Source of the DNA: Vulcanimicrobiota bacterium
Lineage (GTDB): Bacteria > Vulcanimicrobiota > Vulcanimicrobiia > Vulcanimicrobiales > Vulcanimicrobiaceae
Assembly: GCA_963820825.1 (NCBI GenBank)
Contig: CAWGBN010000008.1
Span: forward strand, 1 to 64,000
Length of the DNA stretch: 64,000 nt
Reading direction: 5' to 3'
The notes beneath the pieces are model-generated. The model ran no database searches, was not told where the DNA came from, and saw nothing but the letters and a program-made list of their open reading frames with translations. Positions 36,344 through 42,137 of the stretch are shown piece by piece. Both the position numbers and the translations under genes were made by a program. Numbering within the stretch: the first letter of the stretch is position 1; every line of letters starts with the position of its first letter.

Positions 36344-37609
36344 GTGACACACTGGAATCTTAATCGCTACGCGTTGAGATGCGGCGTCGTCGCTGCATTG
36401 CTTGCTGGCTGCGGGGGATCGCAGCCCCCGATCGACGCGCCTGGTCTAATGGCTCAAGGTCCAGCGCTCGCGGCACGCACCAGTAGCTCGAACTACAAGG
36501 TCGTGTATAGCTTTGGCGCACCCCCGGATGGAGGCTGCCCCCTCGCCGGTCTGATCGACGTGGGCGGCACGCTCTACGGAACGACGAGCGGAGGCGGGGC
36601 ATACACTATCGATAGCAACTGCTTTTATCACACGGGTCTATTCGGAACGGTCTTCAGTATTACAACGGGCGGCAAGGAGAACGTGCTGCACAGCTTCGGC
36701 AACTATCCAGACGGGAGCGAACCTGTTGCCGGCCTAATCGACGTGCACGGCACGCTCTACGGCACGACGAGGGGAGGCGGCAGCACCGCTGGGGGCGGCG
36801 GAACCGTCTTTAGCATCACCACGAGCGGCACCGAGCACGTTCTGCACAGCTTCCTTGGCAGAAAACCTGATGGCGATAATCCCAACGCATCTCTGATCGA
36901 GCTAAAGGGTAAGCTCTACGGCACGACGAGCAATGGCGGCAAGCACGTGAACAGCGGCGGAACGTTCTTCAGCCTTACGGCGGACGGCACGGAGAAAGTG
37001 CTCCACTTTTTCGGAGGAAGCCACGGCAGGAATGTCGAGGCGGGCCTAATCGATGCCGGCGGCGCGCTCTACGGCACGGCTTATTCGGGGGGCGCTTACC
37101 ACAAGGGCGTGGTCTTTAGAATCACTCCAAGCGGCAGGGAGAAGGTGCTCCACAGCTTCGGCAACGGAACCGATGGCGCTTATCCCACCGCATCCTTGAT
37201 CGAGGTAAACGGCACGCTCTACGGCACGACAGAATTCGGTGGCGCGTACAAAGGTGGCACGGTTTTTAGCATCAGCACGAGCGGCACGGAAGAAGTGCTG
37301 CACAGCTTCGGCTACGGGACCGATGGCGCTGATCCCGCGGCATCCCTAATCGAGGTAAACGGCACGCTCTACGGCACGACCAGCGAAGGCGGGTCGTACA
37401 GGTGCGGCCGCACCACTAAGTATTTCAACTGTGGAACTGTGTTCAGCATAACGCCAAGCGGCACGGAAGAGGTGCTCCACAGCTTCAGCAAAGGAACCGA
37501 CGGCACTCATCCGGTCGCGCCCCTGATCGACTTGAAGGGCACACTGTACGGCACGACGGAATATGGCGGCGCCAACCAAAACGGAACGGTCTTCGCGTTG
37601 ACTCCATAA
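36344..37609 (+). CDS. GloVer-type propeller lipoprotein (7 repeats)
   Basis: AGGAG RBS; LLAGC; ends GTVFALTP. Confidence 0.9.
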   Translation: MTHWNLNRYALRCGVVAALLAGCGGSQPPIDAPGLMAQGPALAARTSSSNYKVVYSFGAPPDGGCPLAGLIDVGGTLYGTTSGGGAYTIDSNCFYHTGLFGTVFSITTGGKENVLHSFGNYPDGSEPVAGLIDVHGTLYGTTRGGGSTAGGGGTVFSITTSGTEHVLHSFLGRKPDGDNPNASLIELKGKLYGTTSNGGKHVNSGGTFFSLTADGTEKVLHFFGGSHGRNVEAGLIDAGGALYGTAYSGGAYHKGVVFRITPSGREKVLHSFGNGTDGAYPTASLIEVNGTLYGTTEFGGAYKGGTVFSISTSGTEEVLHSFGYGTDGADPAASLIEVNGTLYGTTSEGGSYRCGRTTKYFNCGTVFSITPSGTEEVLHSFSKGTDGTHPVAPLIDLKGTLYGTTEYGGANQNGTVFALTP

Positions 37610-38001: not shown

Positions 38002-38433
38002 ATGCGAAACATTTTGATCGTCTTGGTGGCCCTCGTTGTCAGCTTGGTACCCCAAGTCGGCTATGTTCACGCATCGAGCACGCCTCCCACAACGGTTACG
38101 GCCATTGACATAGCCCTGGAGCCAGATGCGACGATGCTCCAGCACGCGGCGGCACTCAACGCGCGGTTGCGACAAAGCTTTCCAAAAGGATACGCACTCA
38201 ATGCGAGTCACCGCCCGCATGTGACCATGCTCCAACGGTACGTCCGCACAGCGGACCTCCCCAGAGTGTACGCAGCAGTAGAAAAAATCATGAGCGCAAA
38301 GAGTCCAGCAAGGTGGAAGCTTCAAGCATTCAAAATCGACCATGCCGTTTGGAGCGGCCTGGCTCTCACGGTCATTCTCGCCAAACCGCCGGCGTACGGC
38401 ATGGGCCGCTACACTCTTGCGCATGGAGTATGA
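38002..38433 (+). pseudogene. truncated secreted 2H-phosphoesterase-like protein
   Basis: signal peptide; AIDIALEPD..RPHVTMLQRYV with one HxT motif; second motif missing. Confidence 0.55.
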
Positions 38434-38434
38434 A

Positions 38435-39664
38435 ATGATTGCACGTTTCCGCGGCGTTGTCATGATCGCGGTGGTCGCGGCAATGCTCGCGAATTGCGAT
38501 GGATTGCAGACGTCGGTCAGACAGCCAGGCGCGATGCCCCAAAACATCACGGCGCCGGCGGCGTCGCAGCATTTGGGATCATCCGGCTACAAAATCCTCA
38601 CGAGCTTCAGCGGCCTTAATGGCGACAAGAACCCTGCTGGGGATGTAGTCGCGATGCGTGGTAAGCTATACGGCACTACCAGCGCGGGTGGTGTGCTTGG
38701 CGCAGTCTTCAGCGTAAACCCGGCTACCGGCACCGAGAGGGTGTTGCACCATTTTCAAGGCCAACCCGATGGCGCTGCCCCCCTCGCCGGTTTGACCGCC
38801 GTCGACGGCAAGCTCTACGGCACTACCGCTAGCGGGGGTGTGTATGAGGCCGGAACCGTATTCAGCGTGACCCGAGGCGGTAAAGAAACCGTGTTGTACA
38901 GCTTCGGCGGCTACGGCTCTGATGGCGAGTTGCCTCAGGCACCCTTGATATACGTGAATAGCGAGCTGTACGGTACGACATATAATGGCACCGGTTCTGC
39001 GGGCTCTGGTACAGTCTTCAGCGTTACTTTGAATGGCCAAGAGACAGTGCTGCATCGCTTTACGAATTATCCTAGTGACGGCGCGTGGCCCTTGGCTGGG
39101 CTCACCTATGTAAACGGGCTCCTATATGGCACTACGACTGCCGGCGGAACGACGCACGGGACTCATGGCGCGGGGACCGTCTTTAGCATCACGTCAGACG
39201 GTAGAGAGAACCTAGTTTTCAGTTTTCTTGGAGACACGAATGGCTCCGACCCAATGGCAGGCTTGATCAGCGCCAACGGCGCCCTCTACGGCACGACCAC
39301 GCAAGGCGGCAAGTACCGCTGTGGTACGGTTTTCCGCATCAGCAAGAGTGGGAGTGAAAAGGTCGTCCACAACTTTCGAAATGTTCCCGATGGCTGCTTC
39401 CCATATGCTGGATTGATCGATGTAAAGGGTACGCTTTACGGGACGACCGGCCACGGCGGATCATACTACCAAGGACGCGATGGTGGCGGAACCGTGTTCA
39501 GCATCGCGCCAACCGGCAAAGAAACGGTGCTGCATAGCTTTGGCTCGGGCACAGACGGGTCTGACCCGCTAGCCGGACTCACGAACCTGCACGGCACACT
39601 TTACGGAACGACAAGTCGAGGCGGCGCTCACGGTTACGGAACAGTCTTTGCATTGACCCCATAG
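38435..39664 (+). CDS. GloVer-type propeller lipoprotein (7 repeats)
   Basis: LANC lipobox-like; ends GTVFALTP. Confidence 0.88.
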   Translation: MIARFRGVVMIAVVAAMLANCDGLQTSVRQPGAMPQNITAPAASQHLGSSGYKILTSFSGLNGDKNPAGDVVAMRGKLYGTTSAGGVLGAVFSVNPATGTERVLHHFQGQPDGAAPLAGLTAVDGKLYGTTASGGVYEAGTVFSVTRGGKETVLYSFGGYGSDGELPQAPLIYVNSELYGTTYNGTGSAGSGTVFSVTLNGQETVLHRFTNYPSDGAWPLAGLTYVNGLLYGTTTAGGTTHGTHGAGTVFSITSDGRENLVFSFLGDTNGSDPMAGLISANGALYGTTTQGGKYRCGTVFRISKSGSEKVVHNFRNVPDGCFPYAGLIDVKGTLYGTTGHGGSYYQGRDGGGTVFSIAPTGKETVLHSFGSGTDGSDPLAGLTNLHGTLYGTTSRGGAHGYGTVFALTP

Positions 39665-39858
39665 CGGACGGCTCCCCGTACGCGAAATGGGTGCTTAGCG
39701 GAGGAGAGACGCACATCGATGCATCGGCGATCACATTCCATCCCCGTGCAGCGCCAAAAGCGTTACGCCATATAGCCTTTTCGCGACGCCGCGCGATTTG
39801 CAAACGGCGCTGCAAACTTTGCACGCGGCGCGGGCGATCGAGCGCGCTACCAAAAAGC

Positions 39859-40427
39859 CTGATATGTTACCGAACGGGCCGCGTTGAACGGTTCCCTTAA
39901 CCCGAAAGGGCGGGTCGGCACATCCTAAAACGCCTTGGGCTTCGAGCTCGGAAATAAGATCGATGGCCGACCCGATGACTGCTATCCTAGGAGATCGGAC
40001 CGTATCTTAGGCCGCGTACGTCGCGAAGCCTGTATGCATCAGGGTGATCGTTCGGGATAGCTTGCCGGCGAGTGAGGTGAGCGTGGAGATCCTAGGCATC
40101 GACGTCGGAAAGCACGAGATGCACGCAGTTCTGCTGCAGGACGATCGTTCGACATCGAAAAGCGTCGCCAATTCGGCAGCCGGTTTTAAGCAGTTACAGA
40201 GCTGGCTGCGCAATCGCAAAGCCGAGAGGGTGCACGCGTGCCTCGAGGCCACCGGCGGTTGGAGCGAAGATCTGGCGCTCGCGCTGCACGAGGCCGGCCA
40301 TGTCGTCAGCCTGGTCAACCCCATGCGCATCAAAGCATTCGCCAAGAGCGAGATGCTGCGGACAAAAACCGACCGCATCGATGCAGCACTCATTGCACGG
40401 TTCTGTCGTACGCATGTGCCAGGGGGC
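39859..40427 (+). mobile_element. IS110-family element, left end and 5' part only
   Basis: CT core at 39859-60; long non-coding left end; DEDD transposase N-terminus. Confidence 0.8.
39872..40062 (+). ncRNA. IS110 bridge RNA (5' stem, target-binding loop, donor-binding loop)
   Basis: stems CGGGTCGGC/GCCGACCCG and GCTATCC/GGATAGC each enclose an internal loop and inner hairpin; guides match the left junction. Confidence 0.75.
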
Positions 40428-40430
40428 TGA
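40083..40430 (+). pseudogene. IS110 transposase, truncated after the RuvC-like domain
   Basis: GAGGTG RBS; ILGIDVGK..CLEATG..VNP..KTDRIDAALIA. Confidence 0.92.
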
Positions 40431-40920
40431 GCCCCGGAATCTAGTCCAATGGGAATTGTGGGTTTCCGGCCAAGATGGCCTGCAAAGGAGACCCGCATGC
40501 GCAAGCGACGCTACACCGAAGCGCAGATCGTCGCGATCCTTCAAGAGCTCGACGCCGGCCGATCCGCAGCTGAGCTCGCTCGCAAACACGGCGTTCACGT
40601 CAACACGCTGCGACTGTGGCGAAGCAAATACGCCGGGCTCGACATCAGCGATCTCACCCGTCTGAAAGAGCTCGAATCCGAAAACTCGCAGATGGAGCGC
40701 ATTGTCGCGCGTCAAGCCCTCGAGATCCGCGCGATGTCCGAGGTGATTCGAAAAAACGGGTGGGGCCCTCAGCGCGCAAGGAAGCGGTGAGGGCGTTAGA
40801 GGACGAGGGGATGAGCCAGCGGCAAGCGTGCCGCCTCGCGACCTGCCCCCGACCGACCGTACGATACAAACCACGCAAACGCCCCGGCGACGAGCACGTC
40901 CGCGATCGGTTGCGTTGCAT
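40428..40920 (+). mobile_element. IS3-family element fragment (orfB truncated)
   Basis: begins near TGAGCCCC; orfA; A6C slippery site 40751-57; orfB start SQRQACRL; no DDE domain. Confidence 0.8.
40497..40790 (+). CDS. IS3 transposase OrfA
   Basis: MRKRRYTEAQIVAILQE..LARKHGV..WRSKYAG..RLKELESEN. Confidence 0.9.
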   Translation: MRKRRYTEAQIVAILQELDAGRSAAELARKHGVHVNTLRLWRSKYAGLDISDLTRLKELESENSQMERIVARQALEIRAMSEVIRKNGWGPQRARKR

Positions 40921-41123
40921 GGCGTTTAACGAAAGTGGAGATCCCTTGATTTGGATAGACGAATAGTCCTTAAACCTGCGTGCCGCATGAACCAGACCGC
41001 GGTGCGTCATTTGGTGCCTATCGGGAGTCGAATCAGTTAAATGTGCGTTCAAGTGGTCTAAGCTGGTGCGATAATATAGTAGGTTTATTTGTCCGTTCAC
41101 TCAGCGAAAGGAAATCGTGATCT

Positions 41124-42137
41124 GTGCAGGCTGTTGTAACCTTGGAAGCCCGTTATATATTTGTCGACATAGTCGGTTATACGTTAAAGCGCAGTATCGA
41201 AGCTCAAGTTGATTTAATAAAGGCTCTAAATGAAATCATCATTCAGGCCTTTGAGCGAGAGGGAGTCCCACGAGAGCGCTTGATGTTTTTTCCGGTCGGT
41301 GACGGCGTGTGTTCAGCCATTCTAGGAAACGCGCCGGATCGAGCTGCTGACGATTATGATGCTCACGTCCGAGTAGCTTTGCGAATGCTGGAATTGTTGC
41401 ATGAATACAACGCGCGCACGGAAGACGCGATGCGACGTTTCTCTATTCGAGTTGGGCTAAATGATAACATAGATAATGCCGTAACTGATATTAACGGAAA
41501 CGATAATCTTGCAGGCTCGGGAATTAACGGGGCACAAAGAGTAATGAGCGCGGCCGAGGCGAGTCAGCTATTTGTAAGCAGAGCCGTTTATGATAGATTG
41601 CGTGACCGCGAGTTCTATATGAATGCATTTCGAGAGGTATCAAGCTACACGAAACACGGGGAACGGCTCACTGTTTACCAAGTCATTCTTAACGATCGCC
41701 CTGGGCTTGATGTATCGCTTCCGAGGTCTCTGCAGGCTGCGGCTGAGCCTAGGCTGCCGCGCCTCTTAGGGTACTACATGCGCGCCGCTTTACAGCACCA
41801 GGAAGAGTTGCTCGGGATGCCTGAACTTCCGGGAAACTCGTTGTGGGAAGACGCGGCGCGCATCATGTATTATATGATGGCATTAGATGAGGAGGCGCAA
41901 GAACGTAAAGGTCCATACGATCCACCAACGTTGATGCTTAGTCCTCGGGGCGACGTGACGTTTAGAGAGCGCCTAGCGTACTATCACTCGCAGGATGTGT
42001 GGATCATTCATCTGCTTGCGCGCAAGATTGAGGCGCTGACGACGTTTACGAACTGCTTTGACGGACCGCGCTTTGTATACGTGAATGAGTGTGGTAGGGA
42101 GAAGCTTCGTATGGATCACCCGGACCTAGCTCCATAG
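41124..42137 (+). CDS. class III nucleotide cyclase domain protein with unknown C-terminal domain
   Basis: IFVDIVGYT; PVGDG; IRVGL; GINGAQRVM; visibly AT-richer than flanks. Confidence 0.85.
   Translation: MQAVVTLEARYIFVDIVGYTLKRSIEAQVDLIKALNEIIIQAFEREGVPRERLMFFPVGDGVCSAILGNAPDRAADDYDAHVRVALRMLELLHEYNARTEDAMRRFSIRVGLNDNIDNAVTDINGNDNLAGSGINGAQRVMSAAEASQLFVSRAVYDRLRDREFYMNAFREVSSYTKHGERLTVYQVILNDRPGLDVSLPRSLQAAAEPRLPRLLGYYMRAALQHQEELLGMPELPGNSLWEDAARIMYYMMALDEEAQERKGPYDPPTLMLSPRGDVTFRERLAYYHSQDVWIIHLLARKIEALTTFTNCFDGPRFVYVNECGREKLRMDHPDLAP

Follow-up and report, generated by a model that had tools for sequence, protein, structure and literature searches.

The 64,000-nucleotide stretch analysed here (contig CAWGBN010000008.1, hereafter the window) holds, in front of an incomplete recombinase gene, a segment that an original prediction, made without database searches, took for an intact IS110 bridge RNA whose guides predict the element's own insertion junction. 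Is this segment what it was taken for, and could it still be put to work? With regard to the first question, positions 39859-40422 are very probably the left part of an IS621-like insertion sequence of the IS110 family. Every string on which the prediction rested was found in its place, including the junction AAAAAGC-CT-GATAT at 39852-65, and the anatomy of the locus is given in Table 1.

Table 1. Features of the element, its insertion target and its 3' neighbour (window positions unless a locus is named).
Feature	Position	Strand	Basis
Left flank, part of a conserved intergenic 'two-hairpin' module that is the insertion target	39754..39858	+	shared flanks
Degenerate first hairpin of the module	39754-39783	+
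Left target half AAAAAGC	39852-39858	+
CT core dinucleotide, left junction	39859..39860	+	homology with elements of other genomes starts here
Non-coding left end encoding the bridge RNA	39861..40082	+	left-end alignment; conserved columns
TATGTT, candidate -10 half of a junction-only promoter	39863-39868	+
5' stem-loop, GGGCCG (39876-81) with CGGTTCCC (39889-96)	within 39876..39910	+	fold; covariation
Small CCC-GAAA-GGG hairpin	39901-39910	+
Target-binding loop	39911..39974	+	fold, alignment, guide-flank covariation
Target loop, outer stem CGGGTCGGC / GCCGACCCG	39911-19 / 39966-74	+
Target loop, inner stem CATC with GATG	39921-24 / 39962-65	+
Left target guide (LTG) AAAACGCCT = AAAACGC-CT	39927-35	+
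Target loop, cap hairpin	39936-50	+
Right target guide (RTG) AAATAAG	39952-58	+
Handshake guide AT (AU in RNA) after the RTG	39959-60	+
Donor-binding loop	39981..40061	+	alignment, covariation, termini
Donor loop, outer stem GCTATCC / GGATAGC	39981-87 / 40055-61	+
Donor loop, inner stem GATCG with TGATC	39993-97 / 40045-49	+
Left donor guide (LDG) ACCGTATCT = ACCGTAT-CT	39999-40007	+
Donor loop, cap hairpin	40008-32	+
Right donor guide (RDG) TAT-GC-ATCAG	40033-42 (GCATCAG at 40036-42)	+
Handshake guide GG after the RDG	40043-44	+
DEDD recombinase, N-terminal fragment, ~113 codons, GTG start at 40083	40083..40422	+	PF01548
IS3-family element fragment, orfA with HTH_Tnp_1	40420..40924	+	PF01527, E = 1.1e-20
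Module loci	window 39754-39858; L094-L101 ~1500-1650; copy B flank L002:2065-2190(-)

The boundaries of the element were established from its relatives. Searching 200 genomes of the same family, and then genome and metagenome collections, yielded 92 loci, and related Candidatus Eremiobacterota genomes and MAGs, as well as metagenomes, contained full-length relatives of 1,203 bp. One of them, L004, served as the complete reference (1,203 bp from the CT core to ...ACACCGTATCT, with a 319-aa ORF); it aligns end to end with many loci of other genomes and metagenomes. The full-length relatives fix the ends of the element as CT/GATATG on the left and ACACCGTATCT on the right. In the alignment, the left boundary CTGATATG is present in 39 of 44 left-end sequences, the sequence 5' of CT/GATATG being unrelated between loci, and the right terminus CCGTA[TC]CT in 49 of 57 right-end sequences, similarity stopping beyond it. 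Other copies thus have the same termini, as the original prediction supposed, and since the flanks turn unrelated at CT/GATATG, the left junction at 39859/39861 is the element's true end. Two sequences, L058 and L011, have AAGATATG in place of CTGATATG at the aligned left boundary and a second GGCAGATATGTTGAGA word ~40 nt upstream; their left boundaries may be rearranged or tandem ends.

A longer left end was nevertheless considered, beginning ~105 nt further upstream, near 39754, in which case AAAAAGC-CT-GATAT would be internal. The copy in the window (copy A) and the only other copy in the assembled genome (copy B) are indeed 82% identical over ~77 nt upstream of the CT. However, elements elsewhere lose all similarity exactly at CT/GATATG, and the shared stretch of ~105 nt, common to copy B and to the left flanks of L060, L048, L051, L041 and L039, occurs free of any insertion sequence in 16 of the 200 family genomes, in 1 to 5 copies each, where it ends in the unoccupied site AAAAnnC-CT-TATTTTAC. 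It is therefore not part of the element. The boundary alignment and the unoccupied sites of the relatives refute the longer left end, which keeps next to no probability.

The truncated gene that follows the left end matches PF01548 (E = 2.2e-21) over profile positions 1-107 of 155. It keeps the RuvC-like part and lacks the Tnp domain with the catalytic serine, the PF01548 part alone being present because the gene is cut. Full-length relatives carry both PF01548 and PF02371, on a 319-aa ORF that starts 226 nt after the core. By phmmer, the L004-type recombinase matches the IS621 transposase 8wt6 (E = 1.3e-75, residues 3-316), and the aligned GID, EATG, KTDxxDA and YESGS motifs, which contain the DEDD residues and the catalytic serine, agree with those of 8wt6. 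The ISCro4 transposase (PDB 9t56) is a second solved homologue (E = 1.1e-73, residues 3-316), a match at the protein level alone. The other IS110-family genes of the genome are 27-28% identical to the bridge-type recombinase. Three of these distant genes lie in 429-aa frames (G000:C2:344160-344717, C5:232834-233391 and C6:622699-623256) and a fourth in a 270-aa frame (C6:628442-628861), each ~1-5 kb from an IS3-family copy or an IS3-like match.

Does the non-coding left end form the two loops of a bridge RNA? Folded as a single sequence, positions 39860-40085 form the target-loop stem in the MFE structure as well as in the centroid, which also has the GCTATCC/GGATAGC stem, so the folding check proposed with the prediction recovered both named loop stems. 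Inside the target stem, the same fold has the CATC/GATG stem, followed by a large internal loop that a small hairpin closes off. Taken alone, the folding energy does not differ significantly from that of shuffles (z = -1.43; 16 of 200 were as good). RNAalifold, applied to an alignment of 41 left ends from which L007, the locus of an unpublished genome, was left out, gave both loops with their inner stems and caps, with compensatory changes in 9 of 32 pairs. In a hand-drawn structure of 47 pairs, 85.5% of the cells were paired, as against at most 46.5% when the 3' partners were slid, the former value being an underestimate because helix 8 was drawn one column out of the correct register, which is that of RNAalifold (two pairs 0% paired). 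Two-sided changes affected 14 of the 47 pairs, a number reached by 1 of 500 shuffles. The weakest helix is the 5' stem-loop (helix 1), which has two-sided changes in 4 of its 6 pairs but 71% of its cells paired. On these family-wide comparisons, the loops and their stems are real. Of the 131 alignment columns conserved to at least 90% in 40 relatives, the left end of the window copy departs from none; the description of the bridge RNA as intact therefore stands for its sequence, and for that only.

A scan of positions 39500-41200 against Rfam 15, with E values up to 10, returned only the unrelated sR084 (E = 0.79); Rfam 15 may hold no bridge-RNA model. This result and the weak single-sequence z-score speak for another reading, in which the left end is a mere structured 5' leader of the transposase mRNA, serving for example in translational control, and its matches to the flanks are due to chance in A-rich DNA. 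The two strands of the first internal loop, 5' and 3', proved to be the hypervariable segments of the alignment; those of the second are almost invariant. Guides were read by the rules described for IS621: the LTG has the sequence of the top strand at the left target, the RTG is complementary, in reverse, to the right target, and both pairings include the core (PMC11208160). Right ends that lack a recognisable terminus (L056, L059, L083 and L063) and left flanks that are cut off or lack the CT (L038, L058 and L011) were dropped from the pair counts. The RTG matched the right flank at a mean of 4.23 of 5 positions in 30 unique pairs, versus 2.51 after permutation, and the LTG matched the left flank at 4.70 of 7 positions in 40 unique pairs, versus 2.86; none of 10,000 permutations reached the observed mean on either side, counts that overstate independence because the sequences are related. 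Taking one representative per distinct guide, and omitting L007, gave 4.00 versus 2.29 for 18 RTGs and 4.52 versus 2.68 for 29 LTGs (0 of 10,000 each). Covariation of the guides with the flanking targets, on which the original prediction had made itself depend, is thus present on both sides.

Individual loci illustrate the agreement. The right flank predicted by the RTG is the one found in L054 (CT-AAGCG), L011 (CT-TTTCAAC), L006 (CT-TGTGTA) and L041 (CT-TATTC). The right junction predicted from the window's guides, ACCGTAT-CT-TATTT, is seen in L004 and in L042. The latter carries exactly the two target guides of the window copy and reads ACCGTAT-CT-TATTTC on the right, but on the left its flank agrees with the LTG at no more than 3 of 7 positions. 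Matching on the left is looser in general, with at least 6 of 7 positions in 14 of 41 cognate pairs versus 83 of 1,640 (5.1%) non-cognate pairs, and the register of the LTG is ambiguous by one base in some subfamilies. The window copy, readable on its left side only, has the junction AAAAAGC-CT-GATAT, in which the LTG matches at 6 of 7 positions plus the core, and a match of at least 6 of 7 to AAAACGC immediately 5' of a CT occurs at 322 of the 293,752 CT dinucleotides of the genome (0.11%). The junction had been described as target-left with one mismatch, CT core and donor-right, and this description is borne out. The fraction of non-cognate pairs that also reach 6 of 7 speaks for a leader with chance matches; against such a leader, the two variable strands of the first loop follow the flanks, left and right, over many independent insertions. 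Some left target guides end in CC or CA; core mismatches in the guides may be tolerated or useful.

The second loop was compared with the element's own ends. On the right, the full-length relatives end in the very word of the LDG, ACCGTATCT; the right end of the window copy itself is lost. The left half of the donor, ACCGTAT-CT, is also nearly the same word as that of the IS621 donor. On the other side, the left-end start CTGATAT(G) is paired by the RDG TAT-GC-ATCAG in two blocks, CTGAT and AT(G), with a bulge of 2 nt between them; a discontiguous nine-on-seven pairing of the right donor guide is reported for IS621 (PMC11208160). The predicted donor ACCGTAT-CT-GAT was accordingly right in its left half, which equals the terminus of the relatives, but too short in its right half, where the RDG pairs beyond GAT and discontiguously. 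The core of the LDG is not CT in 16 of 44 relatives (CG in 9, CA in 6 and TT in 1). Among these 16, the right end finishes in CT in 12 and in CG in L083, and L059 and L067 have no readable terminus. That two conserved loop segments equal the element's own ends is a further point against a mere mRNA leader, as is the close homology of the recombinase to that of IS621, whose mechanism is solved. The leader reading is therefore regarded as very improbable, and the left end is treated below as a bridge RNA gene.

Two further features of IS621 were looked for in this gene. In the handshake rule described for IS621, donor positions 6-7 pair with the dinucleotide that follows the RTG, and target positions 6-7 with the one that follows the RDG (PMC11208158). 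In the window, AT at the first of these places is complementary to positions 6-7 of the donor left half (AT), and GG at the second is complementary to the CC that ends most left flanks; at the window junction (GC-CT), only one base of GG pairs. The second feature is a promoter that exists only once the two ends are joined. When the ends were joined by script, 47 of the 49 right ends that could be recognised contributed a TTGAC-type hexamer at a spacing of 17 nt from a TATGTT with TGn in front of it. In the other 2, which are of the L004 type, the script took a second hexamer, TTGAAC; on inspection they too have TTGACA at 17 nt. At the level of motifs, this agrees with the prediction that an IS621-type promoter forms only on circularisation, and a sigma-70 promoter would be re-formed across the joined right and left ends of a circle.

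What is the natural target of these guides? The element sits at the right end of a conserved intergenic module made of two A/T-armed hairpins (of the AAAAAGCCTTAT...ATAAGGCTTTTT type) that flank a TTTTGCAAACG...TGCAAAGTTTGCACG core. The module starts with a hairpin similar to that at the insertion site and uninterrupted, and conserved sequence (GAGGGG..CCC..TATGCCC) lies further downstream of it. Eight of the nine unoccupied loci examined have the site AAAAnnC-CT-TATTTTAC-AGGCTTTTT at the right end of the module. Six of the nine read CT-TATTT after an AAAA/GAAA-rich left half, which is in line with the predicted target AAAACGC-CT-TATTT; the three others are one with GATTT, one whose core is CC and one without the hairpin. 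The insertion point is the boundary between 5' arm and loop of the A/T-armed hairpin; of 4 unoccupied sites folded as RNA, 3 form it. The target hairpin is not called a terminator here because a simple terminator scan did not flag it in L095. A search of Rfam with four unoccupied module loci returned nothing credible. In some genomes, copies of the module lie ~15 kb apart on one contig. Read by eye, three other insertions (L004, L036 and L046) are a few bases downstream of tRNA-like 3' ends, and L030 adjoins one.

The second question, whether the copy in the window can still work, concerns its 3' side. Homology to full-length IS110 copies stops at 40422. Four other IS3 copies of the genome, 97-99% identical (C2:91.9 kb, C5:234.5 kb, C6:627.1 kb and C9:6.8 kb), match the window from starting points between 40419 and 40428, three of the four from 40419-40422, and the IS3 copy in the window is itself cut at ~40924, after ~500 bp. 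The right end, already given as lost in the prediction, has therefore gone through an IS3-family insertion near 40422 and a later deletion. The assembly consists of 9 contigs and is 85% complete. Within it, a right end was sought by a pattern with up to 2 changes, by its tail with up to 1 change and by blastn with the last 330 nt of the reference; none was found, the only matches being to the interior of copy B and to one unrelated tail-like word on C7. The pattern AAAAnnC-CT-TATTT had no match in the assembled genome, an intact cognate recombinase was likewise absent from this 85%-complete assembly, and a scan of 39400-40500 found no sigma-70-like promoter. Copy B (G000:C8:408280-409363, minus strand, 89% identical) is 3'-truncated: its ORF has 284 aa, and its homology to full-length copies stops near L002 position 999. 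It reads HESWS where relatives read YESGS, a G-to-W change, and deviates at 4 of the 131 conserved columns, including one base in each donor guide. The window copy is thus stranded, a bridge RNA gene of intact sequence left with neither junction promoter, cognate recombinase nor right end, and it can no longer move by itself.

The pathway that best explains the anatomy of the locus, its boundaries, the guide-flank and stem covariation, the homology of the recombinase and the state of decay takes its transcription, RNA-protein binding and chemistry from IS621 by analogy. An active copy would excise as a circle, whose joined ends would create a sigma-70 promoter (TTGACA from the right end, a 17-nt spacer and TGnTATGTT from the left end) and drive transcription of a bridge RNA of ~190 nt. 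The target-binding loop would pair with AAAACGC-CT on the bottom strand and CT-TATTT on the top strand of the hairpin in the intergenic module, and the donor-binding loop with the element's own ACCGTAT-CT / CT-GATAT junction; a tetramer of the DEDD/Ser recombinase would then exchange strands at the CT core. The window copy would have been inserted by this bridge-RNA route, leaving the left junction AAAAAGC-CT-GATAT. Later, an IS3-family element would have cut its recombinase gene, and the rest, right end included, would have been deleted.

An RNA gene that has kept all 131 conserved columns next to a destroyed recombinase gene raises another possibility, namely that transcription of the orphaned bridge RNA continues, through read-through or an unrecognised promoter, and that the RNA works in trans, either with a sibling recombinase from an unassembled copy or as a decoy or immunity factor for the target module. 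The IS621 bridge RNA does act in trans, as described in PMC11208160, and with a genome that is 85% complete an intact sibling copy is possible. RNA libraries are also relevant here. No public run contained half or more of the words of the stretch. Contigs of four metatranscriptome runs gave 8 pieces, all from relatives and possibly carried over as DNA. Three of these pieces, from three runs (X16 record 3, X18 record 7 and X19 record 8), cover the bridge-RNA region of close relatives and are 85-99% like the window. Another, X16 record 1, is an unoccupied module in an RNA-library contig, and in one piece a left flank of its own adjoins position 39859. A right-end/left-end junction, a transcript start or a strand is shown by none of the 8 pieces, which speak neither for nor against transcription of the locus in the window.

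Against action in trans stand the lack of a sigma-70-like promoter around the locus, the truncation and G-to-W change of the only other copy, the absence of a right end and of an AAAAnnC-CT-TATTT site from the assembled genome, and the distance of the other IS110-family genes, only 28% identical. Moreover, the 113 recombinase codons that survive are also stop-free, so a recent disruption explains the intactness of the RNA gene equally well and selection need not be invoked. An RNA still made and acting in trans is therefore unlikely. The stronger claim, that the gene outlived its recombinase because it is still used, being transcribed from the chromosome and acting in trans to guide a sibling recombinase or to mask the target module as a form of immunity, is distinctly unlikely. 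The preferred reading remains that of a stranded left end.

How does the element compare with known systems? As in IS621 of E. coli, the left end encodes the RNA, and the gene for a DEDD+Tnp recombinase follows downstream. Shared too are a 5' stem-loop, a pair of stem-loops that contain internal loops, the 7+2 and 2+5 guide layout with a CT core, discontiguous RDG pairing, handshake guides of 2 nt behind both RTG and RDG, and the division of the promoter between the two ends (as described in PMC11208160 and PMC11208158). The parallel with the IS621 layout drawn in the original prediction is thereby upheld; judged by sequence, every feature of an IS621-type bridge RNA is present. The differences are that the host lineage here is Eremiobacterota, that part of the family, including the window copy, carries an additional hairpin, CCC-GAAA-GGG, which separates the 5' stem-loop from the target loop, and that the window copy is truncated. 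IS621 targets a REP element, whereas the target here is an A/T-armed hairpin in a low-copy intergenic module. IS1111-type seekRNA elements also use RNA-guided DEDD recombinases of the same superfamily, but their guide RNA lies downstream of the transposase gene, and here it lies upstream of the recombinase gene, as in the IS110 group. For ISPpu10, an IS110 element of Pseudomonas putida, all insertions are reported to lie in copies of one conserved intergenic stem-loop sequence, the stem-loop being a GC-rich 5' extension that was shown experimentally to gate recognition (10.64898/2026.03.19.712850). The target described here resembles that account in being part of a hairpin in a conserved intergenic module and differs from it in its A/T arms, in an insertion point at the stem-loop boundary, and in that the hairpin is known from sequence and folds.

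Bridge RNAs and their covariation with targets over many IS110 orthologues have been published (PMC11208160), as has the stem-loop target of ISPpu10, so what is added here is a new member of a known family type, in a dead copy. A full-text literature search for 'Eremiobacter' together with 'IS110' returned no paper. With this result, the direct reading of a bridge RNA from raw sequence is confirmed for an uncultured phylum. Its value lies less in the window locus than in the series of re-programmed guides and the defined natural target: in a natural series of ~40 related elements, the target guides are rewritten in step with the insertion sites, against a constant background of donor guides, handshake guides and split promoter. 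The series can serve for comparing how far mismatches are tolerated, and it supplies IS621-like orthologues whose natural target is known. For the genome's own biology the locus is of little import, a relic that marks a region repeatedly hit by mobile elements.

The surroundings of the relic have two further features. On its 5' side, 36344-37609 and 38342-39664 encode secreted-looking proteins of 421 and 440 aa with repeated G(T/K)LYGTT...GGTVFS units, the one of the two that was searched having no credible match in Pfam. On its 3' side, directly after the pile of truncated insertion sequences, positions 41000-42137 form a patch of lower G+C content (0.47-0.51, versus ~0.58-0.63 around it) that may be acquired DNA and that contains an ORF of 337 aa, in which an adenylate/guanylate cyclase domain (PF00211, E = 3.2e-8) is recognised and the C-terminal half is unassigned.
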